NCBI GenBank assembly: GCA_047967505.1
Contig: CM106538.1
Length of the DNA stretch: 64,000 nt
DNA from: Dipteris shenzhenensis
Taxonomy: Eukaryota
Direction: 5' to 3' (one strand)
In this document: positions 18,194 through 58,523 of the stretch, one piece after another
Numbering within the stretch: the first letter of the stretch is position 1
Layout of the letters: each line of letters begins with the position of its first letter
Notes under the pieces: generated by a model
What the model was told of the DNA's origin: nothing
Seen by the model: only the letters and a program-made list of their open reading frames with translations
Database searches by the model: none
Made by a program: the position numbers and the translations under genes

Positions 18194-18231
<38 letters not shown>

Positions 18232-19192: not shown

Positions 19193-19281
<89 letters not shown>

Positions 19282-19332
19282 TGTATGTATGTATATGTTG
19301 ATGCATCAACATATACATACATACATACATAC

Positions 19333-19364
<32 letters not shown>

Positions 19365-19852: not shown

Positions 19853-19943
<91 letters not shown>

Positions 19944-19966
19944 CATACATACATACATACATACAT

Positions 19967-20003
<37 letters not shown>

Positions 20004-20126
20004 TATAAAGAACACAAGTGCTTGTTCTTATGCTCATGAGACAACAAAATGCATGACATGGGAAACCAATGGGGTCTTACTTTTGATGTTTGTATGTATG
20101 TATGTATGTATATATATGCATGTACA

Positions 20127-20187
<61 letters not shown>

Positions 20188-20816: not shown

Positions 20817-20880
<64 letters not shown>

Positions 20881-34162: not shown

Positions 34163-34326
<164 letters not shown>

Positions 34327-34329
34327 CCA

Positions 34330-35321
34330 TAGACTACTTGATGGGCTCCCCGATTTTTATGACATGGTTGCAGGACTTCAAAGTCCCTCTTGGTGTCATT
34401 TAGTATCTTGACTACATTGCCAGCCATGGTATGTGATCCACCTTCCCCCAGCCACGTCTAAGTATCTTATCCCATGGGCTTGCAATTCCTCTTAGAGATG
34501 ACGAAGTTCTTTCTCTTGCCTCAAACACACTAGTATTAGTGATTCATGATGCCGCCACCAAATTATTTCCTACGATTAGATCCACAACTCTCTCCTCAGC
34601 TATGAAGATGCCATAGAACCCTTGGTTTGATGAGGAGTGCTGGGTGATGAGATCCCACCTCGTACGGTAGTAGGGATTGGGACAAATGACGAGATCTAAG
34701 GCACATCGTATTTCACAATGTCTGACGTGATGGAAGAGGCGGACATTCCTCTCACATAGAAAGTCATCCAATCTTTTCATGGAGATGATCCCAGTTTTTT
34801 ATGGGGACTCTTATCCGAGGGGAAGCCACCTATACCCATCATAGATCTAGTTGTGTGGCACACCTATGTGACATCCCTCTACGATGTCCTGGCTCAAACA
34901 CCACCTAATATGTTTGCTCTCCTATGGCCCAGCACTTGCAGGTTCTTCACTCCATAGAATGTGAGGGCTACATTACGCTGGCTCCACAACCAAAGAGCCC
35001 AGTATCATGAGGGGCTATGGACTCAGCACTTTGCACATGGATAGGAGGTCTTGACCCCGATCTTAGCACAGATATTCAATCATGCTATGTTCCATGGCTT
35101 CCCCCTTGCTTGGAGTACTACCACCATTGTGCTAATACACAAAGTAGGAGATCCCATGGATACTAGAAACTATCACACTCGATGATTGGTCACACGTTGG
35201 CTAATATCTATGGATCGTGGTGCTTGAGCGAGAGATTAGCTCCTACATAGAGGCACACAAATAGAGAGAATTAGGGTATGCTAGCTTCAAGAGACAACAC
35301 TCTACTCTTGATCATATCTTA
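34330..35321 (+). mobile_element. RTE/RTEX-like LINE fragment (endonuclease end to RT N-terminus)
   Basis: Similar to 61100-61720 (e.g. gaggggaagccacctatacccatca). RT motifs ILAQIFNHA, WSTTTIVLIHKVGD and FKRQHSTLDHIL. Cut by a copia LTR. Confidence 0.75.
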
Positions 35322-37831: not shown

Positions 37832-38843
37832 CCTCTTAACCCTCCCTGAGCTCCAGCCAAATATCTACTCCCTTCCTTATCTCTTTGCTCATGCCTCTCA
37901 CCACTTTCAATTCACCCAAAAGTCACAAACTTCCTAGCCCCTTACACCTAACTTCTTCCCTACCCTTGCTAATCCTACCCCCGAGGATTACCAAACTGCT
38001 CAATCCATTTGCCTATTTCTTCCCCCCCTCCCCTCAGATTCCCCTCCCATAAATAACACTCTTCCATATTACTCCCCCATGTCCCTATTTTCTCTCCATG
38101 CACCGCTGCCACCTCCGACACTATTTGTGCTGCCATCAGTAGAAATGGATCTAATCTTTGATTTTGAATATCAAGATCTAGATAATCTAAATTGCACTAC
38201 CATGCCAAATTGCAATGATGGGTATGATTTTGATGTAATACCACTTCCTAGTAACCCCATGAAGGATTTCTGGAACAAGTATCCAAATATGAAAACTCGA
38301 GGGGAATGGACCCTGAACAATTTTTCTACCAACCTTCATCAACACCAAATTATTGAAGCTTGGATCTGCAAGTTGGATCCCCAACTTGATTGGTACCACC
38401 CCAAGCTCTTTGATGTAAAATTCTTGAAGGAATACCTCCATGTACCTCCATGCCTCAGAACCCATCCCAAACTCTACGCAGTTCCATGACAGCATAGATG
38501 GGAGGCCAACATAGACACTTTGGATGAGGATTGCACCATTAATTGGCCAATGATCGAGCCATACTCTGGTATAGAATGGAACATCCAAGGCACACTGATC
38601 CAAGCACTTCAACAACATGAGACAATAATGCGAGGTAACTTTGACTGCATCCTCTGACAAAATGCTCTCTTTTGCAAAACCTTGGACTACATTTTGGAGG
38701 TCCCCAACCATATCGACCGCCATTTTCCTACACTCAATTTCAATCCCAGTGGACAGATCGATGCTTAGACTATAAGCAGACCATGCCCTAGTGCCACAAT
38801 AGAAGAGAAAGGGGTGTGTGTGTGTGTGTGTGTGGTGTGTCAT

Positions 38844-41800
38844 TGGGAGTGTGAGAGAGAGATCCCATGCTAGCCCTCGTGCTCCCACACTGCAGCTTCT
38901 TGTTTCTCCCTCAATTTTACGCCCTCAAGGTTTCATTTGACGCGCATTTTGTGTCCATATACTCTGTCGAAAAATTCGGGGGAAAAAAATTTTATACTGT
39001 CAAAAATCCATAGGATTTTGTTCGTACAGTCAGGAAAAATCTGTACAGTTTTGTTTGTACAGTCGGGAAAATCAGTACAGTTTTGCTGTCAGGAAATAAA
39101 AAATTCCTATTGTCAAAATCTTTAATTTTGTCCGTACAGCCAGGAAAAATCCGTACAATTTTGTACCTGATGTGCTTTCTTGCTTGTAAAGCGTTACTGC
39201 TTCCAAGCCTTTTCCTTAACTCGAATGGCGGATTATTCCTATGAGAAAACCTTTCACAAAGACAAGTCAGTTTCCAACAAGAAACAAAAATAGATGATGG
39301 ATTTAGATGATTCCCTTCATGACTCTACTGAGGCTCAGCTTGTTTATGAGGTTATGCATGAAGGGTTTGAAGACACCCACAAAGGTTGGAAAGATTCACT
39401 TCCCACCACTGGCATTATGGTGGAAGTGGATGATATATTTGATCCAGTTAAGGAGTATGCAAAGCATGCCATTATACTTTTCTTCCCCGGACGGATGCCT
39501 ACTGCAGCAGATGTTGGGAATTGGTTGACTCGAACCTTGGGTGGTTCTTATGTCAAAAAAGTTCATTATGCAGCGAGGGGCTTTTTGAGATCATCATGGC
39601 TGATGAGGAGCACCGTCAGGTTTTGTTGGAGCACTCTCCTCTCTTCTATGGCCAACAGATGGTCCATGTCCTGCCCTGGTCTCCCACTCGAGATTATCAG
39701 GCATTGATTCGGCATCGTTGCCCTGTTTGGGTAGAAGTTGTGGATTTTCCTCAATTCTTGTCTTCTCTTCTAACTAAAATTGCAGCTTTCCTCGGTAAGG
39801 TGGTATGTCCACTGGGACTACAAATCGAACCTTGTTTCCTGAAGAAGAAGTTGCTGCACTTTTGTCCTCTCCTCAGGCTGATGCTTCATCCCAGGGCAGA
39901 GGCCCGGACATTGAGGTGGAAATGCAAACATAGACAACCCGTTAATTGCTGTACATACCTGTCCCATAACTGTAAATATGCTTGATCATCTGAAGTGTGT
40001 TACTCTCAATGTACAGGGAATGTGTGATGGTCGCAAATGGAAACTGGTCTGGATGTATATCAGGCAATTGTAGCCTGATATAGTTGCTTTATAGAGCATA
40101 ATCAACATATGTATGCTGGCCAAATAGGGCATTTTGTTGTGTTATGATATCTTCTATGCTAGAGAGCAGTCCTTTTTTGGTGTGGCTTTTTTGGTAAAGC
40201 ACGACCTTCAACCTGTTGTGGCTCTCAATGATCACCATGGTAGATGGATTATTGTTCAATGCCTTGTTCAAGAGGAAATTTTTGAATTTGCATCAGTTTA
40301 TGCCCCCCAATCTTCGCGTGATAGAGCTTTGATATGGGCTGCCATGCATACTTATCCATGGCGACAACATGCCTTCATTTGTGGTGACTTTAATAATGCC
40401 CCTCAATCGGGTGACAACACCTCAAGCCACACTCATATGTTGGCTTCTGAAACACAGGCATGGTCTAATTTTTTGCTTTCAGCATAATCCTCAATCTTCT
40501 TATCAGGCATGCTTGGACAGATGGTATCAGATTGATCCACAGCATTGTAATGCCTTTACTTGTCAAATTTGGGTTGATCATGCTTTCACACATTCAGATC
40601 ATGCTCCTCTTTGGTTGAGGCTTTCGTTACATGAATTTTCCACTGACAGATTGCCTTACTGAAGGCTTTTGCTGATTAATAATAATTATCTGGAGCATGC
40701 TGGCTTTAAAGCCATGGTCTCTAATGCTATTCAGCCTCTTTCTTGTCAGATACGCATTGGTTTGGATTATGCCTGGCAAGCTTTTATGCTCGGATGCAAG
40801 AAATTATTCGAGATTATGGCAAATCCTATATGCAAGCCACAAGGGAGACTGTAGCACATGCCAAATTTACTTGTCAGAGTTTGACTAAGCTTACTCATCT
40901 TCGCCCTTTGTCTTCACAGCAAAGCATGCTCTTATGTCAGGCTCAATTCTCTCTTCAATCCAATGATTGCAAAAAGCTTGCTAAATGGGAAACTCGATCC
41001 AAACAATGGGCATTTTTGGATAAAGGCTGCTCTTTCAAGCAATTTTTAAAGAATTTACACTACAAAAGACAGGCTGCCAATATCTGTTGGATCCGAATGC
41101 CTGATGGTTCTTGGTCAACATCTCGTTCAGAGCTTGCTGATTTATGTGTGCAGCACTTCTCCACTCATTTTGCGCATCTGGATGCTCTTTCTCCTCGGGT
41201 CATGTCTGCACGTCAGCTTCTTTTACAGCATATTCATCCAATTCTGTCTGATGCTTAGGCTTTGTAAAATTAACATCCCTTCACTGAAAGGGAATTGTCT
41301 GATGCACTGAGATCCTATGGCAGATGGAAATCTCTAGGATGGGATGGTCACCATTGAATTTTTTCTTGCATTCTGGGATCTTATTAAATTCACCTTGCTA
41401 CAAATGGTAAATATAGCATGGCAAAATCAGCAGATGCCTGTGTCATGGAAAAAGGGTCTTCTCAAGGTGATTCCAAAAAAGCAGCTATGTGATTCACTTG
41501 GTGATTGGAGGCCAATCACGCTCATGCTAGTCATTTATAAGATCATTGCCAAGATGGTGGTTGATCAGATTAAAGGTTATTTGCATGATGGGTTGCATCC
41601 CTCCCAATATGGCTTTGTTCCACGTCACCATATCACAGATAACATTGCCAATGCTTATATTGGGATTGAATATGCCAAATACACACAACAGGATGTTCTA
41701 CTCTTGCAGGTAGATATTGCAAAAGCCTTTGACACAGTTCAATGGGATTTCATCTCGCAAACTATGCGAGCTTTGGGGTTTGGACAAAAAATGTAGCAGG

Positions 41801-43805
41801 TTATTTATTGGCTTTACAAAGATAGCAATGCGGCTTGCATTCTTTCTAGGGATATCTCTGATGAGTGGACTCTTCGTTGTTCGGTCCGCCAGGGATGCCC
41901 TCTCATCAGTGCTTTATTGTATGCCATTGCTACTCATCCTATGCTGCAATATACTGATCAGCTTGTGGCTACAGGATCACTTCATGGCTTGGAATTGGAT
42001 GCTAATCGCAACATGGTTGCTCAAGCTTATGCTGATGATTCTTTCTTTACCCCAAGGACTACGCCCCATGATCTTGGTGCCTTGATGCAAGCCCTCTCTG
42101 TTTACGGTTTGGCATCTAGTCTTCATGTTAATTTTTAGAAGTCTAAGCTGCTCCCTTTGCATTCCAAAGACTGGCATAGTCTATTATGGCTCGGGGATAT
42201 CATTCCACCCACTCAGTTCATTCGTCATCTTAGTTACCCTTTGGGGTGGGAACTCACTCGCTGACAACAAACTGATTGGATTTTGGCTAAGCTTCGAAAA
42301 AAGCTTGTATTGAAAACTGGCAACCTGGCCTTTGCACGTTCGTCTTCGAATCGTGCAATCCATCCTTGTGACATATATTCAATTTTACTTGCCATTGATC
42401 ATGTTCACTAAGGCAGATCTTACATCTTTCATGTCTGTCCTTACGAAAATCTTATGGCAATCCAAACATGGCAAAAAAAGTCTCAGGCTGCTTTCGATGC
42501 ATCACATTTGTTCTCCCAAGATGCATGGTGGATTGAACATCTCAAATATTCATGTGCATATTCTTGCCCACAGGGAAAAAATGTTGCTCTACAATTTCTG
42601 CAAGGTGATCAACCTCGGGCTCTTATGAACAGGACTCTAGTCACTCATATCAATATTTATGCCTTTGGTCATTAACAACTCGATCACTTGGATTTCTTTT
42701 TTGGCTGCACTAATGGCACTTTGCCTGACTGCCCTTTTGTCTCCCGCTTGCTTCTTGACTAAGCATGTTCTTTCTCATCTGGAATGGAATGGACGGCAAT
42801 CTTTGCTTGGGAATTCTTTAAGGGTTGAAAGCATTCACTGGTCGAAAGTATTTCAGCCTCCCTTGGCTTTATAAGAACCTCGACGTTCCTACTTTGTCTC
42901 GTTTAGAGACATCACCTCGATTGCTGATGTTATAGATGATGCTGGTACTGTGCTCTCCTTTTCTCTAGCAGTACTACATATGGATTGGGCTCTCATTATC
43001 GTCCTTTGTGGCGACAAATTACTTCTATGCTTTCGCATTTTGTTCCGATTCCTCCTTTGGAACTCTAGGACCGGCTAGAAGATTGAACTTTGACTTCTCC
43101 AGGGTCCTCTTCTCGTCCTTTGAGACAATCTCAGATTACTGTATTTGCATTATACAAAATCCTTTTGCCTCAACCTTGGGTTTCACAGAGAGATGATTCT
43201 GTTTGGCGAATGCATTGCCTAGCCAAGTGGTGGAGGAAAAGATTACAGCAACTTTGGACCTATAAAGTACCGCTTCAACAATAGTTTTCTTTTAGCGAGT
43301 TCTTTTGGGAGTGTTTCAATCTGGATAGCTATTAGCTCATCGACACATTGCTCCTGCACTTTGCCACAGATGTTCTGCTTCTTCAGAGACTGTCTCACTT
43401 GTTTTGGCATTGTCCGTGCTCTTATGAGTTTTTTTATCTGCTTCGACAGCGCCTGTGAGCGAGATTCCCATCTGTTCCATTTGGAAAGTTCTTCTGGCTA
43501 TTTGAGGTTCATCCATCCAGACCGGAGTTTCATCTTTTCTTCGTTTGGGTTCGCTGCTGGACACTATGGACTTTATGAACATATAGGAATTATAAAGTCT
43601 TTGGTGATCCTACTTTCTCTCTGTTTGGCTTTTTTAGGCGTTCTCTGCAACAATCTTTCTTTGATTGCTTACAGACCCGCTGCATAGATCATGAGGTCTT
43701 TTTGGCATATACTGAAATTTTCAATTGATGTAATTATAGCACCTTATTTTGAGGTTGCTACTCATATAATATAATCAATCAAAGATTTCACCCAAAAAAA
43801 AAAAA
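38844..43805 (+). mobile_element. Near full-length decayed L1 LINE inserted in a (GT)n tract
   Basis: ORF1 AIILFFPGRMP. Endonuclease KCVTLNVQG, FASVYAP, ICGDFNN, SDHAPL. RT WRPITLM, VDIAKAFD, AYADDS. Poly(A) 43794-43805. TSD-like flanks gtgtg(t)gtgtgtcat on both sides. Confidence 0.92.
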
Positions 43806-44795
43806 GTGTGTGTGTGTCATGCCTCTCTCTCTCTCTCTCTCCCACACAAACCTACAAACATACAGGGGTTTCTTACAATCTAAGACAATCATGAAGGAAA
43901 GAGAGAGTTAGATGGGAAGGAGGGAGAAGAGAGAGAGGGAGAGGATGATGGAGAGGTAGAGGGAGAGAGTAAAAGAAAGCAATTAGGAGGGTTGGAAAAT
44001 TTCCGACCCTCCATATCGCTTCCTTTTGTACACTATTGTGCACACGCACACACAGGGAAGGAAAAAGGAGAGAGAGAGAGAGAGAGAGAGAATAAATGAA
44101 GTAGTAGCATGTTTAGCAATTGACTTTATGATCTACAATGGGAGTCAGACTTGAGTGAATGCCAAAAGTAAAGCTCACCAGGTGGCACAAAGGTGGGAAA
44201 GTGGGGACTTTGTATAGCACTTGAGGGAGAATACAAGCCAAGGTACAAGCTTGGCAGTAGAAAGAAAGGGGTGAAATGGAGACGAAGGAAGGAGATGATG
44301 AAGAGATTGGACAAGGAGAAGGCAACAAGGTGGTGGAAGAGTAGTGCACACGAACAACAACTAAGTAGCTTTGGAGGGAAGTAGAAGTGAGCAAGGCAGC
44401 CAATCAAGTGGTGAACCATAACAGGCAAAGAAGATTGTCGTAGCAATGTGCAAGGAACGGAGGACGGAACTAGGCTGGCGGTGCAAAACGGCAAGGGGGG
44501 GAGGGGGATAGGGATTGGTTAGGCGGTGAGTAGATAGGGGAGAGATTAGGGGGGTGGGTTTGGGGGTTGGTTAGAGGGGATGCACGGTTAGGGGAGGAAA
44601 GATAGGGGGTTATGGGGTTTAATTAGGCGGAGGAAACAAATAATAATAATAATAATAAAATTATGGCAGTTATATTTTGAGAGATAGAGTTAATTATTAC
44701 CAGTGAAGGGGAATTTAAAAGCTTGTGTGTGTGTGTGTGTGCCTGCACGTGCACACATGCACATGCACATGCGCTTTGGAATATTTTGATAGCCT

Positions 44796-44982
44796 CTTTA
44801 CATTTAAAAAACTTGGTACAGCAAAATTTAGAATGCAATTCCATTGTAGAGACTAGTGTTAAAAGAGAGCTCAGATATTAAATTTTGTTCTTTACATTTA
44901 AAAAACTTGGTACACCAAAATTTAGAATGCAATTCCATTTTGTAGAGACTAATGTTAAAAGAGAGCTCAGATATTAAATTTT
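44796..44982. repeat. Tandem duplication, ~94-bp unit x2
   Basis: ctttacatttaaaaaacttggtaca...gagctcagatattaaattt occurs twice. Confidence 0.88.
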
Positions 44983-45445
44983 ATTGACAATGGAAATTCA
45001 TTTGTCTTAATTAGCTTTTAGACTTCCTTTGTAAAGTTACATGCAAGCTAAGCTGCTTGTTCGTAATTGAAATTGGAATCATTTCCTATTCCTGATGTTA
45101 CTGGAGGTGCCAACAACCACAGGCACCCTCTATTCATCCCAGCTGCATCAATAGCTTTGTAATTGCTATGGACGAGCAAGAGGACAGACAATGCAAGATT
45201 GAAAATCTCATTTTTTGGCTTTAATATTCCTGTATAATGACAACAGATGTACTGCAGACCATGTTGGAGCTTAAGTTAGGAAGCTATGGACCAAAGGCTC
45301 TGCATTCGCGGCCATTGAAGGGGCATTTCAATATTTCAAGATTTCCTGGATCTGCTACAGTAGTATGAGTCATGCGTGTGTTTTTTTGGGCTACTTTATT
45401 ACCCTTGTTAGTCAAAATAATCTGATGCTTGAGCTCGGAATCCAG

Positions 45446-45529
45446 TCACTGGAAAAAAAGTCTTGCAGCAGTGAGATTGTACTCAATAAGCTCAAGTTCA
45501 GTCAGACTGCTATTCAATCGTTTCACGAT
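45446..45529 (-). CDS. WASHC4: WASHC4 homolog terminal coding exon
   Basis: Boundary cag|ATC; 84 bp. Encodes IVKRLNSSLTELELIEYNLTAARLFFQ-stop, matching the family's ...ARIFF C-terminus. Confidence 0.88.
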   Translation of the reverse strand: MVKRLNSSLTELELIEYNLTAARLFFQ

Positions 45530-45619
45530 CTGCAACAGTTTCAGTTAAGCGTCATCAGCAAAACCAAGGCTCTGTATGCTATTAGACACTACTTTTAAGA
45601 ATTGAAGCAAAAGCCTCAC

Positions 45620-45811
45620 CAGCTGCATGCTCTGTGCTTCTTCCTCTGAAATAGATGCAAACTTTTGGCTCCATACTTGCAGCCCATTCATGCCACTCTC
45701 AATATTGTCCATATCAAGTCCATCTTGTACTCGATTTTTTTCATTCGCAATGTGTTTTCTTGCTGACTCAAACCAATGAAGTGAGTCGAATTGTTTGTCT
45801 TGATCAAGTAC
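45620..45811 (-). CDS. WASHC4: WASHC4 homolog exon
   Basis: 192 bp with AG/GT boundaries. Encodes VLDQDKQFDSLHWFES (conserved FDSLHWF motif). Confidence 0.92.
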
Positions 45812-46078
45812 CTGCAGTGGGTGCATAAAAGGGTTTGTTCAACTCTGGAATGAATAGAATACAATCAACAGACCTAACATAAATGCAGGAGAAAGCTGCA
45901 GGCCAGCACCTCCCTGATTGCAGAAGTAAAATGCACACAGAAAGCATAGTAGGACAAATCCTCTCTCCTATGTTTTTCTGATTTCAGCCCACTCTTCCAT
46001 ACTTCAGGCGCAAATTTGGTAAAGCATAGAAAACAATAGCTCCTGTGAGCAGGATGAATTGTGAGAGAAGATTCCTAC

Positions 46079-46261
46079 CTTGAGAATATATGCTATGCCA
46101 AGGACCAGACCATCATCAGTGAACAATCCACTTGAGCCATCACGACCTCTTTTGAAAAGTCTCTCTTTTGATTGTACCATAGTCTCTACAGCATTCAGGA
46201 TCAATGCTGGTAGTATCAGGTAAAACTCCTTCAGGTGTAGATTATCTACACTTTGCAGCTC
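46079..46261 (-). CDS. WASHC4: WASHC4 homolog exon
   Basis: 183 bp with AG/GT boundaries. Encodes ELQSVDNLHLKEFYLILPALILN...FTDDGLVLGIAYILK (conserved FTDDG motif). Confidence 0.92.
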
Positions 46262-46402
46262 CTGCAAAACCAAGATTTCCAAATTCATACATTGCCAGTG
46301 CCTCTTAGTTTTTTAAGAATGAATGGTGTTCCTCCGTATGCAAGCCTAGAAAGAACATCTATAGTTTGCTTGACTTATCTCATCAAATTTTTAAAACAAG
46401 AC

Positions 46403-46574
46403 CTGGCAAAATACTCCAGTGAGGATCTTGAAATAGTTAGTCTGTTCAATGGGCATTTCTTGTATCTTGAGAGTTCTGTCAAGTATTGCTCCTGCCCGCA
46501 CAGCTTCTGAATTCATTTTTAACATCCTTGCAGCCTCCTCAAAGCTGGCTTTTTTTTTCATATCCTGCACAAAT
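46403..46574 (-). CDS. WASHC4: WASHC4 homolog exon
   Basis: Boundaries aag|ATTTGTG...TGCCAG|gt; 172 bp. Encodes (G)FVQDMKKKASFEEAARMLKMNSEAVRAGAILDRTLKIQEMPIEQTNYFKILTGVFCQ and keeps frame with both neighbours. Confidence 0.85.
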
Positions 46575-46661
46575 CTTTGAAAGAAAGTGACAATGCATAA
46601 GCAAGCAAGAAAAGATCAGAAGACTTGGATACAAAATACCAGGAGTAGCGACTACTAGTAC

Positions 46662-46861
46662 CCAGATGCTGTACTAGAATGATGTAGACCCCCCATTCGC
46701 ACCATGCGGACGAAGCCAAGTGCATTCCCCATTTCTGCAATAAGCCGTCGGAACTGATCAAGAGAATTCATACCGTCATCTGTTAATCCCAGTTTCTTGA
46801 TGTCCCTGTTTAGTTTTTCTGCTCTCGCAAGAGGATACTCCTTATTTTTTTCATGACATTC
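46662..46861 (-). CDS. WASHC4: WASH complex subunit 4 (SWIP/KIAA1033) homolog, first exon visible in the window
   Basis: [60 protein letters not shown] resembles the WASHC4 C-terminal domain as I recall it (YPFDRAEKFNRGIRKLG...[25 protein letters not shown]). AG/GT boundaries; 200 bp, phase 0 to 2. Confidence 0.92.
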
Positions 46862-47427
46862 CTGTGCAAACATCTGAGTTAAGAAAGACTATTTGTTCAT
46901 CTTAAGTAGAACAACTGTATGAAACACTCGGCACTCACACTTAGACCATGGCTTTATCAAAGATATAAACCCACATACTGTGTTACAGGCAGGCACATTT
47001 TAGAATATTGCACGTGCAATTTCATGAAGGTAATAAATTTGCTGTATTACTTTCCTACACTCACGAAAATGGATATATTGCAGAACATACACTCTAGAAC
47101 CACAGAAGAGGAAGCAGTATGTTGCAACTAGCATTCCACACAACCACTGCAGAGGCCATGAAGGCTTCTGATCATTGTTTTTTTGCTTACACATCAACAA
47201 CAAGCTTCTCAACTGGTCAAGCTTCTCAACTGGTCAGGCCATATCCATTCAAACCACTCAATATGTGAGGAGACTCATAGCAAAGGAGCTGATTAATGCC
47301 TTATTCAAGTATAGTGACAAATAATCACATATGTCATTTTTTTAATGTTAAAAGAGAGAGAAATTTTATTTTTGAATTTTTTTAAAAATTGGGTTGGCTA
47401 TTTTTTGGGAGTTGGCTTCTCGTTTCT

Positions 47428-47465
<38 letters not shown>

Positions 47466-47467
47466 TG

Positions 47468-48305
47468 ATAGATCCATTTGGAGAACACTTTCAACTATGT
47501 TGCAGCCATTTGTTCCGGTTCCTCCACTGTTTGCACAGGACAGATTAATGGACTGGAATTTGACTTCCATACCTCCTGCTACACATACACTCTCGATACA
47601 CAATCTGACTTCCTCGAAGGTTTACAGATTTCTTCTTCCACAGCCATGGATTGACAAGCATGCCAACACTCTTTGGAATTTGGATAGGCCTTTATCTTGG
47701 TGGCAATCCCGTCTCATGAAAATCTGGAAAACCAAATTGCCATTGAAACAGAGGCTTTTCTTTTGGAGATGTATAGTGGGAGCCTTTTCCATTGGGGTGA
47801 AATTGGCAGCTCGCCGCATTGCTTCTCCTTTCTGCCCCCGGTGCTCTCATCCCCGCGAGACAGTTCCTCACTTATTATGGTTTTGCCCGCACTCTCGCAC
47901 ATTGATCACTCATGTTTCTCATTTACTGCGGCTTCGGTTCCCTTCTATCAGATTTGGGAAACTTTTCTGGATGTTTGGATGCTGCTCATCTCAGATGTCT
48001 CCATTACTCCTTTTCTTTCATTGGACTCGCTTTTGGGTATTATGGACCATCTGGACACAGAGACTGCATTCTAGGATGGGTCAACAGTTTCCTCAGGCAT
48101 ATATTTTCTTCAGAATGTCCCTTAAGCAGTCTTTACATGACAGTCTTGCTGCAAGGGATTTGGATGCTACTTGCCTTGAAGTGTTCTCTACTTGTTTTTG
48201 AGTTCTTCTATCGGGCTCTCTTTTGGAGTTCTATGCTAGTGTGTGGGAGACTTCCCATATTGTAAATTCATGAGCTTATAAATACAATGGATTTTACCAA
48301 AAAAA
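47468..48305 (+). mobile_element. 5'-truncated L1 in a (GT)n tract
   Basis: zf-RVT CPRCSHPRETVPHLLWFC and poly(A). The identical 17-mer gtgtgtgtatgtgtgtg at 47451-47467 and 48306-48322 is a TSD. Confidence 0.92.
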
Positions 48306-48366
48306 GTGTGTGTATGTGTGTGTGTGAATGTGTATGTGTATGTGTATGGTGTGTATACACACGGTT

Positions 48367-48398
<32 letters not shown>

Positions 48399-48404
48399 TG
48401 TGTG

Positions 48405-48750
48405 CATCACATATTTGGGAAACTTTTTTGGTTATTTGGCAGATTTAGGACGTCTTTATCTCAATACTCACTCTTTTTCTCATGGGTGAGATATTGGGCT
48501 CTTTGGACAATCTGGGAAGAGCATAATCTGGCATACTTGGGCCGTCAGTTTCAAAAGTCATATGAATCTTTTAGAGCCTCATTGCGGCAATCTTTATATG
48601 ATGCCTGCCATGAGGGTGATATACATGCATCTTGCATTGAGCTTTTCTTTTTATGCTTCTGATCTGTGGAATACTCTCCATCTTGGAGACTTTCCCTCTT
48701 GTAAAGTTATGACAATATAAATACACTACACTGGATTTTACCAAAAAAAA
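48405..48750 (+). mobile_element. Short 5'-truncated L1 in a GT/GA tract
   Basis: Closely similar to 53945-54286. Poly(A) ends at 48750. Both flanks read gtgtg(ag)ntgtgtg. Confidence 0.9.
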
Positions 48751-48782
48751 GTGTGAGAGAGTGTGTGTCAGAGAGAGAGAGT

Positions 48783-51700
48783 GCGGCCGCTGCAGTTCAG
48801 CCTCGCCAAGGAGCCCGTTCAGCCTCCCTCCCCGTCTGTACAGGTACACCTGTACGGACGCCGTACGCTTTCGTACGACCATACGGCCAACTAGGTGAGG
48901 TCTGGCTCACCCCTGCGCAGCTCCGAGCAGTCCCGTACTTGTTTTGCATCGCCATCGCTGTATCTTTTCCTTAGATTCTTCCGTACGTCCGTACAACCCC
49001 GTCCATTTCCGTACAGTCCAGTCTCTCAGTGCCCCGTCAGCATCCCAGTACAGTTTCAGTTCCTTCCGTACAGTTTCTTCCGTATACCCGTACAGTCCCG
49101 TTTTGCCCGTACAATCCCGTACCTTTTCCGTACAATTTTCAGTCGTGCTCCTGCATTTTTCCGTACAGTCCTTGTCTCGCTTGTTTAGATCCTATACCTT
49201 TTCGTACAATCCCTCTTGCCTTGTCGTATTCCAACCATGGCTTCAGGTACGGATGTTTGTACATATGATCGAAAAGAAAGACCTGCAGAAGCTAAGCGCC
49301 GCCCTTCACAGCCTGCAACACAAGATGATGAACTTACTATGGAAGCTCAATACGTGTTTGATACACTTAAGGATGACTTTCAGCAGTCACGACAGGAATG
49401 GGGCAAACCAGTTCCAGAGGTCACATACAAATTGAAATTGCCATCCCTCGTGAATCCTCTCAGGAAGTTATCTCAAACTGCAATAATAATTTTCTTTCCA
49501 GGAAGAATCCCAGCAGCCAGTGATGTTGCACAGTGGATTAAGTCCATCCTTGGAGGATGCTTTGTAGAGGGAGTATATTTTGCATCTAAAGGCTTTTATG
49601 AGGTGCATTTATCAGATGCTTTGTGCAAGCAGAGGCTACTTGAGCTTTCTCCCCTCTTTTATGGGAAGCAGATGGTACATGCTATGCCCTGGTCCCCAAA
49701 CAAGGATTATCAAAGTCTTATACGACATCACTGTCCTGTATGGGTTGAGTTCCGGACTATATGCATGAAGAATTGCCAGGCCTGACTGCTTCTTTGGGAC
49801 AGGTCATTTGTCCTCCACGCCCTATGGGAAACCGTAACAGGTTCTGCATTCTCTGGGACACTGATACACCTACCCCTCCTTCTATTGCAGTAGAAGTTGA
49901 GGGAGTGCACTTGGGAAAAAAGTATTTTGAATTGAAATGGGGTGTATTTGCAGGAGCTTGTTTTGCCTGCCACAAGTTTGGACATCTAGCCTCTGAATGC
50001 CCAATGGTTCTGCATCAGCCCCCTCCCAATGCCTTGCCGCCCCAGATACGGGAAAAGAATGAGAATTCGCAGGCTAAGACAGCAAATAGAAATGGAGCAA
50101 AGAATGCCAAACCAATTAATCAGGTGCAATCACTTGCTGGAAAAGGAAAAGATAAAGAAAAAGAAAAGATGAAGGTATCTGTGGGAACTGATCGGGATGG
50201 TTTTCAACACCCTAAGAAGGTGGTTGTATTGAAGCAACGCCCCTTTCAATCTCGTCAATGGGATGCTTCTTCTCCCTCACCAGGACAGGCTTCTACTTCA
50301 GCTCCTGTCCTTCAAAATTGGGTGGGGGTTTTGAAGAAGGGCATCCCCATATGTGATTCTAAAGAAGGGGTATACCTCTTTCATGATCAAACACTTAAGT
50401 GCTTTACATACAATGTACAGAGCCTCTGCAATGTTTCAAAGTGGAGGCTTTTATGGAATTATGTACATAAAATGCAGCCAGATATTGTTCCTTTGCAAGA
50501 GCATAATCAACACTCTAAGGCTGGTCATCATGATTATTTTGATGGTTATGACATATACTATGCTAGTACCACTACCTACTCAGGGGTATGCATAATGGTT
50601 AGACATGAGCTGGAGCCTCAGTTAGCCTTCAATGACAGCAGTGGCAGATGGATGGTCATACAATGTAATGTCAATGGTGATATTCTTGAGTTTGCATCAG
50701 TCTATGCCTCCCAGACCTCTGCCATCAGGGCTTCTTTATGGAATTCTTTAAGCAAATATCCATGGAGATCTAATGCATTCATCTGTGGAGATTTTAATAA
50801 TTCCCCTCTGCCAAGAGATAACACTACTTCCAGATCTCATATGCTATCATCGGAAAGGCAGAAATGGAATAGCATGCTTCTTTCTGTGCAGGCTGAAGAT
50901 TTATGGCTGCTTCTCCAAGGGTCAGTGCCTGGATATACTTTTCATCATAATGCACTTACTACATACTAGGCAAGGCTTGACAGATAATACTTCTTTTACC
51001 CACAACAATATGCAGATTTTAGCCCTCATCTCCTCATAGATTTCTCATTGGGCTTGTCAGATCATACCCCATTATGGATGAATCTGCACCTTGGTATGCC
51101 ACTGGATGATTTGCCACCTTTTTCCAGTCGATTATTACATGTTAATCAGGCTTATTTCCGACATCACTATTTCCAGCAAATGATCAGACTTGCAATTCAT
51201 CCCTTGCCTTTGCATGCCCAGGAGGACATGGATTATGCTTGGGACAGCTTTGTCTCTCGTATACAGAATGTCATTAGGGAGTATGGAAACTGGCATATGA
51301 CTAAATGGAGGAATGAGGTTAAATGGGCAAAAAGGACAGCACAACAATTGACTGAATTTTCACATTTAAGGCCTCTCTCTGAATCAGAAAATGATTCCCT
51401 TTCCCATGCTCGGATTAAATTGACTACTAATGATCAGAGGAAATTGCACAAATGGCAGATTAGAGCAAGAATGAAGCCCCTCACGGATAAGGGCTGCTCA
51501 TCAAAAGCCTTTTTCCAGGGCCTGCATGCTACTCGACAGAAAAACTCATGTCTAAGGGTAAGGAAGCTAGATGGCTCTTGAATGCACTCTTTCTCTGATC
51601 TCCGAGATGAATGCCAAAATTATTTTCAGAAATTGTTCTCTGCTCCTGGTTCCCCGTCAAATCAAATGACTCATGCGAGGACTGAATTCCTCCAATATGT

Positions 51701-54286
51701 TTCTGAAATAGTGGAAATGGATGATGCTCTTACCTTGGAGAGACCTTTTACTGATACAGAACTTGATAATGCATTGTTCCACCTCAGCAAATACAAGTCC
51801 CTTGGCTGGGATGGCCTTACGGTGGAATTTTATATTTCTTTTTCGGATGATTTGAAAGATGTCCTCTTGCAAATGATCAAAGTTGCCTGGCAAGCAAATC
51901 AGTTACCGCACTCTTGGAAGCATGGCATAGTCAAACTTGTGCCCAAAAAACACCTGTGTGACCATATGTCAGATTGGAGGCCTATTACTTTGATGCCTGT
52001 AGTTTACAAACTCATTGCCAAAATGATTGTGTATAGGCTTCACGGGATACTGAATGCGGGCCTTCATCCTCATCAGTATGGGTTTGTGCCGCCGTGAAGA
52101 CAAATCCATGACAATATCTCCAATGCATTGACTGCAATATGCTAAGTACTCGCATCAAGATGTGCTCATATTGCAGGTAGATATTGCTAAGGCATTTGAC
52201 ACTATTCAATGGGATTTTATCTTTCAAATCATGACAAAGTTGGGCTTTGGTCCAAAGATAGCAAATGCAGTTTACTGGCTTTATTCTGGCTCTACTTCTC
52301 AGCGCATTCTTGGGGGTCATCTATCCCGGTCATGGACATTGGGTAGATCAGTTAGACAAGGCTGCCCTCTTAGTGCTCTCTTCTATGCCATTGCGACCCA
52401 TCCCCTCTTAATGTATCTTGATCATCTTACAACCACAGGACAGATGACTGGTCTTAAAATCCCTGGGGCTGCATCTTTTTTGGCACAAGCATATGCTGAT
52501 GATTCCTTCTTTATGCCACAGAACTCTCCCCGGGAAGTTCACATGCTTATGACCACTCTATCATTGTATGGATTGGCAGCGGGATTGCATGTTAATTTTG
52601 ACAAATCTAAATTGCTTCCCCTGAAACAATGTGACTGGCATTCTATTCTCTGGCAAGGTCAGGTGGTGCATTCCAAAGATGTAGTCAGGCATTTGGGATA
52701 TCCTATAGGATGGCATATCACCAGGAAGCAGCAGTTAAAACGGATCTTCCAAAGACTTCAACATAAACTAGAATACTGGAAAATTTCTACTTGGCCACTT
52801 CATGCCAGGCTCAGAATAGTACAGTCCATTGTAATGTCCTATGTCCAGTTCTTTTTGCCGTTGCTGCATTGGTCCTCCAGAGATATTTCAGCCTTTATGT
52901 CTCAAGCTATGGAGATGTTATGGAGGACAAAAACTGCTGTGAAAGCATTGAGACTAATGAAGATGGAAATGGTGTGCTCTCCTAGGATGCATGGCACACT
53001 TAAAATCCTCAATATAAGATATCATGTACTTGCAAGGCAGGCGACTATGCTCCATACTTTTTTCCGCCAACAACAGCCATGGACTTGTATGATAGCATCC
53101 ATGTGTGTCAACATGAGGACTTCTGCATATGGACATTGGACTACTGATCATTGGGAGGTTGTTATTGGGAGATTTGTAGGGAAGATACCTAGCTGTCCTT
53201 TCTCTACTGCTCTGATACTTGATTGGAAACAAGTACTTTCTAAGATCAAATGGGCTCCTGATAATTGCTCGGCGACAAACTCAATGAGGAAAGAAAGTAT
53301 TCATTGGAGTGCCATCTTTGACATTCCACTTGCTTTACAGGAACCTGTTCGGGCATACAATCTCATGAAATTGGGAATCAGATATATACATGATGTGGTA
53401 GATAATCAGGGCTATGTTTTATCTTTTCCTCAAGCTACTGCTTCCTATGCATTGGGAATGCACCATAGGTCGATATGGAAGAAAATTGCTGATTTGTTAC
53501 ATCCTTTTCTACCGGTTCCCCCTGTGGCTGACACAGACAGGCTATTGGATTGGCAATTGCAACCCTCTGCTACATGCTCTCATCCTGTTTCCCTGCCTGC
53601 CTTGACCTCCATCAAAGCATACAGGCTTCTTCAGCCTGCTCCATGGATTCAGCAACATGCTAATACTCTGTGGCATATCAGGAAGCCCCTCTCATGGTGG
53701 CGGAAGAATCTCAGGATATTATGGAAGTGTAAAATGCCTTTGAAACAAAGACTTTTTCTTTGGAGATGCATGACAGGCACATTGTCAGTGGGAGTCACAC
53801 TTGCCAAACGTCGCATTGCACCTTCCACATGTTTAAGATGTCAGGCTCCTTCAGAGACTGTCCCTCATTTGCTTTGGCACTACCCGTGTTCTCGGAACCT
53901 CCTCGGGAGAATATCAGATCATCTTCGGCTCCGTTTCCCGAGTCACAATGTTGGGAAACATTTTTGGCTATTTGGCAGATTTATGAGGTCTATGTCTCAA
54001 TACTCACTATTTCTCTCTTGGGTGAGATATTAGGCTCTTTGGACAATCTGGAGTGAGCATAATTTGGCATACTTGGGTCGGCAGATTCACAAGTCATATG
54101 AATCTTTCCGAGCCTCATTGCGGCAATCCTTATATGATGCCTGCCACGAGGGTGATATAGATGCTTCTTGCATAGAGCTTTTCTTTTTATGTTTCTGATC
54201 TTTGGGATACTCTCCATTTCTGGAGACTTCCCATCTTGTAAATTTATGAGCATATAAATACAGCACTGGATATTACTAAAAAAAAA
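48783..54286 (+). mobile_element. Full-length L1 LINE, lightly decayed
   Basis: GC-rich 5' UTR. ORF1 from ATG 49237 (DUF4283-like, CCHC CFACHKFGHLASEC), then APE endonuclease, RT (VDIAKAFD, RQGCPLS, AYADDS), zf-RVT and poly(A) 54278-54286, followed by GT repeats. The 5' boundary is approximate. Confidence 0.95.
49237..54198 (+). pseudogene. L1 ORF1 + ORF2 (nucleic-acid binding, endonuclease, reverse transcriptase), few stops and frameshifts
   Basis: ORFs 49216, 49761, 51048, 51582 and 52162 lie in domain order. Confidence 0.92.
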
Positions 54287-54340
54287 GTATGTGTATGTGT
54301 ATGTGTGTGTGAATGTGTATGTGTATGTGTATGTGTATAT

Positions 54341-56196
54341 ACAAACACAGGACAGATGACTGGTCTTAAAATCCCTGGGGCTGCATCTTTTTTGGCACAA
54401 GCATATGCTGATGATTCCTTCTTTATGCCACAGACTTCTCCCCGAGAAGTTCACATGCTTATGACCACTCTTTCATTGTATGGTTTGGTAGCGGGATTGC
54501 ATGTCAATTTTGACAAATCTAAATTACTTCCCCTGAAACAATGTGACTGGCATTCTATTCTTTGGCCAGGCAGGTGGTGCATTCCAAAGATGTAGTCACG
54601 CATTTGGGATATCCTATAGGATGGCATATCACCAGGAAGCAACAGCTAAAATGGATCTTCCAAAGACTTCAACATAAACTGGAATACTGGAAAATTTCTA
54701 CTTGGCCTCTTCATGTCAGGCTCAGAATAGTACAGTCCATTGTAATGTCTTATGTCCAGTTCTATTTGCCTTTGCTGCATTGGTCCTCCAGGGATATTTC
54801 AGCCTTTATGTCTCAAGCTATGGAGCTGTTATGGAGGACAAAAACTGCTGTGAAAGCATTGAGACTGATGAAGATGGAAATGGTGTGCTCTCCTAGGATG
54901 CATGGTGGACTTAATGTCCTCAATTTAAGATATCATGTACTTGCAAGGAAGGCGACTATGCTCCATACTTTTTTCCGCCAACAGCAGCCATGGACTTGTA
55001 CGATACCATCCATGTGTGTCAACATGAGGACTTGTGCTTATGGTCATTGGACTACTGATCATTGGGAGGTTGTCATTGGGAGATTTGTAGGGAAGATACC
55101 TGGCTGTCCTTTCTCTACTGCTCTGATACTTGACTGGAAACAAGTACTTTCTAAGGTCGAATGGGCTCCTGATAATTGCTCGGGGACAAACTTGATGAGG
55201 AAAGAAAGTATTCATTGGAGTGCCATCTTTGACATTCCACTCGCTTTACAGGAACCTGTTCGGGCATACAATCTCATGAAATTGGGAATTAGATACATAC
55301 ATGATGTGGTAGATGATCAGGGCTATGTCTTATCTTTTCCTCGGGCCACTGCTTCCTATGCATTGGGAATGCACCATAGGTCTATATGGAAGAAAATTGC
55401 TGATTTGTTACATCCTTTTCTACCTATTGCTCCTGTGGCTGACACAGACAGGCTTATGGATTGGCAATTGCAGCCCTCTGCTACATGCACTCGTCTTGTT
55501 CCTCTTCCTGCCTTGACCTCCATCAAAGCCTACAAGCTTCTTCAGCCTGCTCCATGGATTCAGCAATATGCTAATTCTCTGTGGCATATAAGGAAGCCCC
55601 TCTCATGGTGGCGGAAAAATCTCTGGATATTATGGAAGTGTCAAATGCCATTGAAACAAAGACTTTTTCTTTGGAGATGTATGACAGGCACATTGTCAGT
55701 GGGAGTCACACTTGCCAAACGTCGCATTGCACCATCCACATGTTTAAGATGTCAGGCTCCTTCAGAGACTGTTCCTCATTTGCTTTGGCACTGCCCGTGT
55801 TCTAGGAACCTCCTCGGGAGAATTTCAGATCATCTTCGGCTCCGTTTCCTGAGTCATATTTGGGAAACATTTCTGGTTCTTTGGAAGATTTATGAGGTCT
55901 TTGTCTCAATACTCACTATTTCTGTCTTTGGTGAGATATTGGGCTCTTTGGACAATCTAGAGTGAGCATAATTTGGCATACTTGGGTCGGCAGATTCACA
56001 AGTCATATGAATCTTTCCGAGCCTCATTGCGCCAATCCTTATATGATGCCTGCCATGAGGGTGATATGGATGCTTCTTGCATAGAGCTTTTCTTTTTATG
56101 TTTCTGATCTTTGGGATACTCTCCATTTCGGGGACCTCCCATCATGTAAATTTATGAGCATATAAATATACTGCACTTGATATTACAAAAAAAAAA
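54341..56196 (+). mobile_element. 5'-truncated L1, near-identical to 52430-54286
   Basis: The 467-aa ORF nearly matches the 623-aa ORF upstream. Poly(A) is followed by gtatatgtatgtgt. Confidence 0.93.
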
Positions 56197-56334
56197 GTAT
56201 ATGTATGTGTATGTGTACATGTACATCTACATGTAGTATGTGTCTGCACTGTGTACTATATAGTCTATGTATGTGCACTATTTTTTGTATCTATATGTGC
56301 TTTTGTTTTTTTTATCATGTGCGTGCGTGCGCGC

Positions 56335-56369
<35 letters not shown>

Positions 56370-56370
<1 letters not shown>

Positions 56371-58133
56371 CAAATGATTCTTTCTTTACCCCGAAAAATA
56401 CTCGGAGTGATCTCTCCTTGATTATGCAGGCTCTTTCCACATATGGCTTAGCTGTTGGTTTTCATGTGAATTTTCAGAAATCCAAGTTATTGCCATTGCA
56501 TGCTAAAGACTGGCATAGTCTTTTGTGGCCGGGGGAAATTGTTCCACCTTCTCAATTGATTCGACATCTTGGCTATCCTCTAGGTTGGGGACTCACTCAT
56601 TCTCAACAAATTGATTGGATGCTCACAAAGCTGAGGAAAAAACTTGAATATTGGAAGCTTGCAACTTGGCCATTACATGTTTGCTTGCGAATAACGCAAT
56701 CCATTTTGATAGCATACATACAATTCTATCTGCCCCTCATCATGTTTACTAAGGCAGATTTGGTTTCATTTGTCTGCTATCATGGAGATTTTTTGGTGTT
56801 CAAAAAAGGGCAAGAAAAGTCTCAGATTACTCTCTATGCATTGTCTCTGTTCTCCAAAGATGCACAGGGGTTTGAACATACTCAATATTCAAATGCATAT
56901 AGTTGCTCACAGGGGGAAAATGATGTTGCAATTTATGCAAGGGGATCAGCCTTGGGCTTTTACGATCCACTCTCTTTTGTTGCATATTGATACTTCTGCT
57001 TTTGGGCATTGGCAGCCCACACAGTGGGATTTTCTATTTGGCTCTATTCAAGGCAAGATCAAAGGCTGCCCTTTTGTGTCTCGTTTGCTTCTTGATTGGA
57101 AGCATATTTTATCCCACTTGGAATGGAATGGTAGGGATTCTTTGTTGGGAAATTCCTTGAGGGCTGAGAATATTTATTGGTCCAAAGTATTCCACCCTCC
57201 TTTGGCTATACAAGAACCTAGGCGTTCTTATTTTATATCTTTCAAAGGTATTGCTACTGTGGCGGATGTACTTCAGAATGATGGCACTCTTTTATCCTTT
57301 TCTATGGCTGCTAGCAAGTATGGTTTGGGAGCTCATTATCGTCCTTTATGGCACAAAGTTTCAGAAATGCTTCAACCTTTCTTGCTGGTACCTCGTTTGG
57401 AACTTCAAGATAGGCTTGAGGATTAGACTCTCCACTCTCCTTCTTCTTCAGCCCGTCCTTTGAAGCTATCACATATCACAGTGCCTTCTCTATATAAAGT
57501 GTTGTTACCTCCGCCTTGGGTTTCTGACAGAGCCAATTCTGTTTGGCATATGGATCGTCCATCAAAGTGGTGGAGAAAGCAGCTGCATCTCCTTTGGCAC
57601 TATAAAGTCCCTCTTCGGCAACAGCTTTTCCTCTGGCGAGTTCTACTTGGCATTTTCCCATCTGGGCAGTTACTTGCGCATAGACATATTGCCCCGGCTG
57701 TTTGCCACAGATGCCTACATTCTGCTGAATCTGTGCTTCACATTTTTTGGCACTATCTACATACTTGTGATTTCCTCGCTCTCATTCGTTAAGAGCTTCG
57801 AGCGAGATTTCCTACTGTTACTTTTGGCAGGTTCTTCTGGTTATTGGATTATGATATATTTTTTGTTTGGGCGCGCTACTAGGCACTTTGGACTCTATGG
57901 ATGGACAGAAATCATAGTCTTTGGTGATCCTACCTTTCCATCTTTCATTTTTTTCAAACGGTCTCTGCGGCAATCGTTTTATGATTGCTTTCAGACTCAT
58001 CTGATAGATCATGATGTATATATGGCTTATACAAAGATTTTCGATTGAGTAGTAGTTATTCCACTTTTGGAGTACCTATGAATGTAATTATTTCACTGTA
58101 ATAAAATATTTATTCTCACCCAAAAAAAAAAAA
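56370..58133 (+). mobile_element. 5'-truncated L1 of the 38844-type subfamily in a (GT)n tract
   Basis: Starts at the (A)NDSFFTP RT motif. Peptides match the 42000-43700 region. Poly(A) 58122-58133 is followed by (TG)n. Confidence 0.92.
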
Positions 58134-58523
58134 TGTGTGTGTGTGTGTGTGTGTGCGCGCGCACTATGCACTTTACTCTGTGTGTATGTGTATGTGCATG
58201 CGTGTGCACGGTGTACCATAGTCTATGTATGTGCTATTTTTTACACGTGTATGTGTTTATGGTTCTTTTATCATGTGTATGTACTCAAATTCACTGTGTA
58301 CTATAGTCTATATGAGCATGTGTGATGTGTGCACGCAGCATATGTGTGAAGAGAGAGAGAGAGAGAGAGAGAGTTTATTAAAGTCTTTGGAAGACCGATG
58401 GGTCTGTGAGACTAATAGAAAACTGATACAACAAGGAGAAAGGGTGGAGCTACTAAATGAGCATCATCACCCATGCTGAATGCTAAGTGCTAAGTAGTAC
58501 ATAGTCATATCATCAGTATTGGC

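Follow-up and report, generated by a model that had tools for sequence, protein, structure and literature searches.

A stretch of 64,000 nucleotides from the genome of the fern Dipteris shenzhenensis (contig CM106538.1 of assembly GCA_047967505.1; hereafter the window, within which all counts of junctions, tracts and copies given here were made) contains six copies of L1-type long interspersed nuclear elements (LINEs), denoted A to F, and a seventh copy of only 15 bp. Delimitation of the copies by sequence reading and by comparison of the window with itself using BLAST (self-BLAST) confirms the six copies, all on the + strand, that an earlier note on this DNA had described, and adds the seventh. 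Copy A (38844-43805, +) is a full-length, heavily degenerate L1 of family 1 that is recognized by Pfam matches to DUF4283 and RVT_1 and ends in CACCC followed by 12 adenines (A12). Copy B (47468-48305, +), identified through a zf-RVT match and alignment of its 3' end, is a 5'-truncated member of a lineage of its own, with an open reading frame (ORF) that is open throughout and a 3' end that reads TTTTACC and A7. Copy C (48405-48750, +) is a 346-bp 3' fragment of the D lineage that ends in A8. The best preserved copy, D (48783-54286, +), is a full-length element of family 2 that encodes ORF1 (DUF4283 and a zinc knuckle), an apurinic/apyrimidinic (APE) endonuclease from approximately position 50394, a reverse transcriptase (RT) and zf-RVT, and ends in ATTACT and A9; it carries in-frame stop codons at 50967 and 50985, within the endonuclease, and more at 51579 and 52095. 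Copy E (54340-56196, +) is 5'-truncated, 94.1% identical to D, and ends in A10. Copy F (56370-58133, +), a 5'-truncated relative of family 1, begins at the YADD-coding region, ends in CACCC and A12, and interrupts a pure GT tract, with (GT)15 upstream and (TG)10 downstream. The starts of five copies agree with those in the earlier note and only that of copy E moves, from 54341 to 54340; the five copies B to F, noted as stacked within 11 kb, span 10.7 kb. The mini copy (18230-18244, +) consists of ATTACT and A9 within the (GT)n tract 18200-18252. Given that ATTACT represents the last 6 nt of copy D in the alignment of 3' ends, the mini copy is an extremely 5'-truncated insertion of the D lineage. 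No other fragments of the GT-flanked L1 lineage were found elsewhere in the window.

A Pfam search produced matches for 9 of the 22 scanned ORFs, and the domains found among the copies are DUF4283, a weak CCHC knuckle, Exo_endo_phos, RVT_1 and zf-RVT. The DUF4283 match scores 32.6 bits in A, above the cut-off, and 25.1 bits in D, just under the cut-off of 27.2 bits; the zf-CCHC match in D is weak (17.5 bits against a cut-off of 20.8). The APE domain is N-terminal in ORF2 and is detected in D as Exo_endo_phos (E = 7.4e-8). Comparison of the D endonuclease with solved structures yields five matches, all of them to the human L1 endonuclease or its variants (the best being 1VYB, E = 8e-8); N14, E43 and the GDFN motif are aligned with the human enzyme, and the RLD and SDH motifs are readable 3' of the stops at 50967 and 50985. 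RVT_1 is found in A and D, and among solved structures the RT half matches human L1 ORF2p with E-values from 1.3e-11 to 4.8e-11, compared with 4e-6 or weaker for R2 proteins. The zf-RVT domain is detected in B, D, E and F (E from 1.6e-10 to 3.9e-9) and, by the same Pfam search, not in the degenerate copy A. No restriction-like endonuclease family is present among the Pfam matches of the scanned ORFs. Other L1-type features are the 3' ends of A7 to A12 in all seven copies and the target-site duplications of 14/15 nt in A and 17 nt in B. Because of the combination of DUF4283, APE, RVT_1 and zf-RVT, together with the best matches among solved structures, the copies are assigned, at the level of sequence, to L1-type LINEs of the plant kind; their ORF1 and zf-RVT domains are of the type found in plant L1.

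The relationships among the copies are heterogeneous. In the self-BLAST, D and E are 94.1% identical over 1875 nt (92-94% in amino acid sequence), D and C 87.5% over 345 nt (76% in amino acid sequence, over a match of only 29 amino acids), and A and F 69.4% over 1812 nt. D and B align in two short stretches of 68% and 85% nucleotide identity (54% amino acid identity). A and D are 66-73% identical in conserved stretches at the nucleotide level, and in amino acid sequence 48% in the endonuclease and 57-59% in the RT core. Between D and F the self-BLAST reports no nucleotide match, and amino acid identity is 41-49%. Altogether, amino acid identity between the lineages represented by A, B, D and F ranges from 41% to 59%, which points to the presence of at least four lineages (A, F, B and C/D/E), more than the minimum of two diverged subfamilies proposed previously. 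Beside the two full-length copies, there are five different 5' truncation points. Because both lineages and truncation points differ, the copies are best regarded as separate insertion events, as had been suggested on first reading.

The closest named relatives are hypothetical proteins from the fern Adiantum nelumboides, with 51-62% identity, followed at a greater distance by those of Ceratopteris richardii (32-34%). In the RT, the identity of several Adiantum proteins to A is about the same as that to D (54-62%). The families in the window are thus as far apart from each other as they are from these fern relatives, and the lineage is old and diversified. The relatives that possess an endonuclease are only 28-39% identical to A and D and fall outside the lineage. 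Runs of the VC/CV type, which correspond to a translated GT tract, are found in none of 110 relatives, for which the gene predictions need not extend into the flanks.

The feature that unites these divergent copies is the junction at the 3' end. The A-runs of copies A to F are A12, A7, A8, A9, A10 and A12, respectively, and that of the mini copy is A9. Among the 22 + strand runs of at least 7 A, 7 pass directly into a GT-type tract, and these are exactly the six L1 tails and the mini copy; the remaining 15 are followed by no such tract, and none of the 19 T-runs of at least 7 T is preceded by an AC tract. The orientation is fixed: in all seven copies the GT sequence comes after the A-run. When the flank is scored as the number of matches to (GT)n over the 12 adjoining nt, the 3' flanks of all seven copies reach 9-12/12, so that the direct joining of each poly(A) tail to a GT-type repeat, as originally described, holds throughout. 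Such a score is attained at 572 of approximately 63,988 positions in the window (0.89%), and at 0.63% of those outside 38.8-58.4 kb. By our own arithmetic, the probability of such an arrangement arising by chance is about 4e-15 if the seven events are independent and about 7e-7 if only three separate loci (18.2 kb, 38.8 kb and 47.4-58.2 kb) are counted. The 5' flanks of B, C, E, F and the mini copy also score 9-12/12. For copy A the value is 6/12, because CAT comes after the GT tract there: a (GT)10 tract is followed by GTGTGTCAT. Hence the earlier claim of a GT-rich tract next to every 5' end is valid for the five copies with high scores, requires the addition of CAT for A, and applies only loosely to D. 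Four of the nine long GT or AC tracts in the window (at least 8 units, with split tracts counted once) are occupied, so that the target is used to a high degree, though without saturation.

The duplications that flank the copies are made of the tract itself. In copy A, the 5' duplication (38830-38843, +; GTGTGGTGTGTCAT) is located at the end of a (GT)n tract that begins at 38814, and its 3' counterpart (43806-43820, +; GTGTGTGTGTGTCAT) immediately follows the A12 run; the two are 14 and 15 nt long, differ by one indel, and include the non-repeat CAT at the end. In copy B, the duplication GTGTGTGTATGTGTGTG (47451-47467, +) is repeated without a change over 17 nt at 48306-48322 (+), and its internal A identifies it as a genuine duplication. 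Thus, the two tract-derived duplications reported in the earlier note are clear, and two more are probable. Copy C has GTGTG(AG)nAGTGTGTG on both sides, probably a duplication blurred by repeat slippage. The flanks of E, of the (GTATGT)n type, agree over about 23 nt with 2 mismatches (54317-54339 compared with 56197-56219) and likewise probably represent a target-site duplication. The boundaries of the F duplication are indeterminable within pure GT. The mini copy belongs to a unit that reads (GT)15-ATTACT-A9-(GT)4 at 18200-18252, and in a paralogous unit with an upstream flank that is about 97% identical, the corresponding segment (20828-20877, +) is an uninterrupted (GT)25, which can serve as a paralogous empty site. 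The tract is therefore not element-borne at this site, the point on which the earlier note had made its reading depend. The units themselves form a cluster at 17900-21100 of near-identical direct and inverted repeats that resemble miniature inverted-repeat transposable elements (MITEs). The microsatellites in each unit are (GTAT)n, (AT)n and either (GT)n or (AC)n. The 15-bp L1 copy lies in one of these units, and a second unit is its empty site.

Many LINE clades end in simple repeats. Accordingly, the GT repeat might be conceived as part of the element, i.e., a 3' microsatellite tail, or as a product of growth from the tail after insertion, with no target preference involved; the seeding of microsatellites by poly(A) tails is described in the relevant part of PMC3812793. 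This explanation is extremely improbable. The 5' ends at six truncation points also adjoin GT-type sequence, the duplication of A contains CAT and that of B an internal A, and the paralogous unit has (GT)25 without an element; moreover, a microsatellite that originates from a tail is rich in A and takes the place of that tail instead of lying behind an A-run that has stayed intact. The candidate was rejected on the strength of the 5' flanks, the duplications and the (GT)25 empty site. Because truncated copies with differing 5' ends still adjoin GT-type sequence upstream, and because of the internal A in the B duplication, the CAT that ends the A duplication and the paralogous (GT)25, the GT tract must have pre-dated the insertions.

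Pre-existing tracts could also receive LINEs through endonuclease-independent insertion at breaks in fragile, Z-DNA-prone (GT)n sequence. The formation of non-B DNA and breakage of (GT)n tracts are discussed in the section of PMC3812793 that deals with such repeats. The lack of a duplication around copy D would agree with this scenario. However, duplications of 14-23 nt accompany A, B and probably C and E, and the 3' end with its A-run is intact in all copies. Regular duplications and intact 3' ends are hallmarks of endonuclease-dependent insertion. Insertion at breaks was rejected for these two reasons and is considered highly unlikely.

The sequences between the copies retain traces of the history of the locus. 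Tandem Repeats Finder identifies GT, GTATGT and TGTGCGTG tracts throughout the spacers. The D-E spacer (54287-54339, +) is of the (GTATGT)n type, and the GT-rich E-F spacer (56197-56369, +) is homologous to the sequence that follows F (58134-58345), with 77% identity over about 150-200 nt; this homology shows that the spacers are what is left of a single GT-rich locus that was already tandemly duplicated. In addition, a stretch of 32 nt in the B-C spacer (48317-48348), which includes a GAATG interruption, is 100% identical to a part of the D-E spacer (54302-54333). The bodies of B and D, by contrast, are only about 54% identical in amino acid sequence; the shared stretch may go back to an early duplication of the locus, to gene conversion or to a flank carried along with the RNA. 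A long compound microsatellite, (CT)n(AC)27(GCAC)n, is present at 34170-34330 (+) and has no LINE inside; its compound pattern recurs in reversed orientation, as (GT)n(GA)n, at the L1 junctions 48368-48398 and 58350-58373.

Homologous spacers (the 32-nt identity and the 77% similarity between the E-F spacer and the post-F sequence), together with the fact that C, D and E form one lineage, would be compatible with an array derived largely from one or two insertions that were multiplied by segmental duplication or unequal crossing-over, as opposed to repeated insertion. We consider this very unlikely, given that B, F and the C/D/E lineage share only 41-54% of their amino acids, that C, D and E differ in their 5' ends, junctions and identities to D (87.5% and 94.1%), and that no duplicated block holds an element with both flanks. 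It was the divergence of the copies that led to rejection of this candidate.

The 5' ends of the two full-length copies have a peculiarity of their own: both start with GT/GA-rich sequence (38844-38866 in A and 48751-48782 in D), located within the target-site duplication in A and directly after the A-run of C in D. This start may be the true 5' end of the element or may come from the source locus; in the former case, full-length copies would bring a target-like motif along. Further downstream, CCGTACA/GTACAG motifs are repeated in the 5' untranslated regions of A (38980-39165) and D (48830-49230), which together contain 9 of the 12 + strand CCGTACA sites of the window. The other 3 are near the end of the window (63775-63990), after TGGTATCAGAGC at 63583, which looks like the primer-binding site of a long terminal repeat (LTR) retrotransposon.

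Taken together, these observations are probably best explained by a diversified lineage of the L1 clade that uses ordinary target-primed reverse transcription and initiates it within microsatellites of (GT)n/(AC)n or of the GTAT-type variants of this repeat. In such reverse transcription, the nick in the primer strand marks the start of the duplication, and because the A-run directly precedes the duplication, the priming nick is placed on the (AC)n strand. This geometry agrees with the strand assignment in the earlier note, and the position of the nick corresponds to a C-A step in six cases and is ambiguous by one base in F. The second nick would follow 14-23 nt downstream, whatever the local sequence; the sites of the second nick share no sequence, being located after CAT in A and inside GT in B. 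Each insertion would then split the tract and duplicate 14-23 nt, so that a target is left on both sides, and later insertions from several lineages could stack head to tail. In this manner, the B-F array would have formed in a GT-rich, internally duplicated locus that once comprised about 600 bp. The proposal that the duplication regenerates the target and the array seeds itself fits both the splitting of the tracts and the stacked arrangement.

As to the determinant of this preference, we lean, with slightly better than even confidence, towards an altered cleavage preference of the APE endonuclease. Targeting led by the endonuclease is favoured because the junctions are precise and the duplications regular, as in TRAS1 and SART1. 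All four family-2 3' ends retain an ATAAAT motif and F has AATAAA, in each case 17-24 nt upstream of the A-run; these motifs, at the distance expected of a polyadenylation signal, suggest a true polyadenylated RNA end.

Several observations weigh against insertion by ordinary target priming in (GT)n. Five of the nine long GT or AC tracts have no insertion; the 5' flank of D is a GT/GA mix that scores only 7/12, and D has no recognisable target-site duplication; and there are only three independent loci in a single 64-kb window, with five copies at one of them, such that the flanks are non-independent. Furthermore, a primer that ends in ...ACAC cannot pair with a poly(A) template. The A-runs are short and family-specific (12 and 12 as opposed to 7, 8, 9, 10 and 9), the 3' flanks of D and E have their first 20 nt in common with 1 mismatch, and the 32-mer is identical in the 3' flanks of B and D; these features, like the primer that cannot pair, fit a GU-rich RNA that continues past the A-run at least as well as they fit the endonuclease model. 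Finally, the window encodes no intact endonuclease of the lineage, whose cleavage specificity is a prediction.

The latter points can be combined in a different explanation, namely RNA-guided homing, whereby the RNA reads through or extends into GU-rich sequence past a templated A-run and (GU)n pairs with the 3' end of the nicked (AC)n strand, so that this pairing, in place of the endonuclease, would select the microsatellites. This would account for the A12 runs of both A and F despite their divergence of about 30%, for the A7-A10 runs of family 2, for the shared flanks of D and E, for the 32-nt stretch shared by B and D in spite of their dissimilar bodies, and for the ...ACAC primer that is unable to pair with poly(A). 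The 3' duplication of A, which lacks the GG irregularity of the 5' copy, would fit a duplication of 9 nt plus a templated (GT)3. Pairing of read-through RNA in R1Bm and SART1 provides a resemblance. Conversely, the A-run is preceded, at a distance of 17-24 nt, by motifs that resemble polyadenylation signals; D and E have flanks unlike those of C, the mini copy, A and F; the perfect 17-nt duplication of B begins exactly at the A-run; and the 32-mer may derive from an old internal duplication of the locus, in the same way as the E-F spacer and the sequence behind F, which are 77% homologous. A nick in the AC strand is required in this case too, and the points that favour RNA can also stem from old locus duplications, conversion or slippage. 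We regard RNA-guided homing as a tentative alternative, clearly less probable than not; the endonuclease and RNA pairing may also act together. An RNAalifold analysis of the four family-2 ends, which was directed at a conserved hairpin in the 3' untranslated region as a possible mark of stringent RNA recognition, gave 23 pairs with 2 double changes and a covariation term of +0.19 kcal/mol, and offers no support for such a structure. A still bolder version, which we consider rather improbable, posits a fern-wide L1 lineage that homes via its RNA, with the A-run internal and templated, a true 3' end that is GU-rich, and the homing sequence carried by each copy. The GU-rich end would come from read-through into the flank of the source copy or from addition to the RNA. 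Should RNA homing operate and the GT/GA-rich 5' starts be genuine, single microsatellites would be converted into self-extending head-to-tail LINE arrays, and such a repeat-templated mode of homing would be undescribed for L1 elements of the poly(A) type.

The rest of the window is rich in nested retrotransposons. An unrelated L1 at 2852-30786, for which the absence of GT flanks had been noticed before, encodes an ORF1 with DUF4283 (3212-3742) and the C-terminal end of ORF2 (29604-30350). It is 23% identical to D in amino acid sequence and falls outside the lineage; its 3' end is a short A-rich stretch near 30786, and its flank scores 5/12. This L1 appears to be split by nested elements, in which case the two ends would belong to one element. 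Between them lie a gypsy-type element on the - strand (integrase at 5.0-6.4 kb), a copia-type element on the + strand (10.3-14 kb), a second copia-type element on the - strand (24.4-27 kb) and the repeat cluster at 18-21 kb. Exons of the gene for WASH complex subunit 7 are located on the - strand at 45548-46888, between copies A and B, with matches to WASH-7_mid at 46658-46888 and to WASH-7_C at 46007-46312 and 45548-45838, all on the - strand. The B-F array is found on the upstream side of this gene, antisense to it, and possibly inside one of its introns. No further WASH-7 exons were found in 58.3-64 kb, where none of the 18 ORFs matched any Pfam family.

This setting raises the question of passive accumulation, i.e., survival of untargeted insertions in a GT-rich, gene-poor or intronic junk region, an explanation that has been proposed for Waldo-A/B near CA repeats in Drosophila in the part of PMC3812793 devoted to these elements. 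The array does occupy a repeat-rich region beside, and antisense to, the WASH-7 exons, and other transposons are nested nearby. However, passive accumulation cannot place 7 of 7 A-runs at the exact start of a GT tract in a single orientation, and gives no account of the tract-made duplications or of a 15-bp copy that lies in (GT)n while its paralogue is uninterrupted; nor are such flanks seen around the other L1 or the LTR elements of the window. Being contradicted by the junctions, this candidate was rejected and is most unlikely.

The behaviour of the GT-flanked copies is reminiscent of several known systems. TRAS1 and SART1 of Bombyx are poly(A)-bearing APE LINEs that insert into the telomere repeat, with the specificity carried by the endonuclease; they similarly have a tail joined directly to a short tandem repeat, a fixed orientation and head-to-tail arrays, and differ in belonging to the R1 clade of insects and in targeting a 5-nt telomeric repeat. 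Microsatellite-specific APE LINEs listed in the section of a 2013 review (PMC3812793) on such elements are Waldo (ACAY), MinoAg1 (AC), Kibi (TC), Koshi (TTC) and Dong (TAA), all from insects, fish or snail, with a mechanism characterized there as 'not well understood'. MinoAg1 of Anopheles, an AC-microsatellite-specific APE LINE of the R1 clade (PMC3812793, same section), has an APE-type endonuclease and targets the same dinucleotide repeat; in contrast to this animal R1-clade element, the window copies are L1-type (DUF4283 ORF1, zf-RVT and the structure matches to human L1), and have, for their part, an A-run at the junction. The Togen families of the NeSL clade in fish are (TG)n-specific and thus share the target repeat, yet in the framing of the passages of PMC4640811 that describe them they represent a restriction-like-endonuclease lineage, unlike the window copies with their N-terminal APE. 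Kibi, specific for (TC)n, and Koshi, specific for (TTC)n, are microsatellite-specific APE LINEs within the wider L1 group (Tx1 clade, fish), in which Tx1, with its target-specific insertion, is placed together with L1 in the pertinent portion of PMC3472496; these elements differ in being from vertebrates and in using a different repeat.

Among plants, the L1-CS lineage of Cuscuta europaea targets TTCTA/TTTCAA in the CUS-TR24 satellite, according to the part of PMC8091179 that concerns it. It is a plant L1 whose heterogeneous subfamilies all use one repeated target and thereby turn a tandem array into a mosaic; unlike in the window, its sites are near the canonical L1 motif TTTTAA within the satellite monomer, which amounts to a T-rich motif preference and not to a new dinucleotide-repeat target. 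Consequently, of the prior knowledge on which the earlier note relied, the existence of microsatellite-specific APE LINEs in animals stands, whereas the view that plant L1s are non-specific does not, given the target preference of L1-CS in these passages (PMC8091179). What is new here is that the target is a microsatellite; a preference for particular targets is not in itself new among plant L1s. Zepp and ZeppL of green algae are also L1-type elements in tight local clusters, but the clusters mark centromeres and no microsatellite target is mentioned in the relevant passages of PMC9940879. RTE-related plant retroposons have microsatellite-like 3' ends that are linked to the first base of the duplication, as described in the corresponding passage of PMC6007223. 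A plant or fern L1 that targets (GT)n was not found by full-text searches of the literature, a scope that leaves out Repbase reports, subscription journals and supplements, so that an earlier description may exist.

Thus, the lineage seems to act in the manner of animal microsatellite-specific LINEs and, by its domains, to belong to the plant L1 group, and is likely a plant example of a repeat-homing LINE. The poly(A)-tailed L1 is the textbook case of loose, T-rich target choice. If the interpretation is correct, a land-plant L1 in which the first nick has moved to (AC)n would constitute a natural experiment in the retargeting of an endonuclease or of priming, a question that bears on L1 target choice and on site-directed LINE tools. 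GT microsatellite markers in such genomes may then be interrupted by LINE fragments down to 15 bp. The same process would provide a concrete route from simple repeats to retrotransposon clusters in large fern genomes, in this case beside, and possibly inside, the WASH-7 gene.

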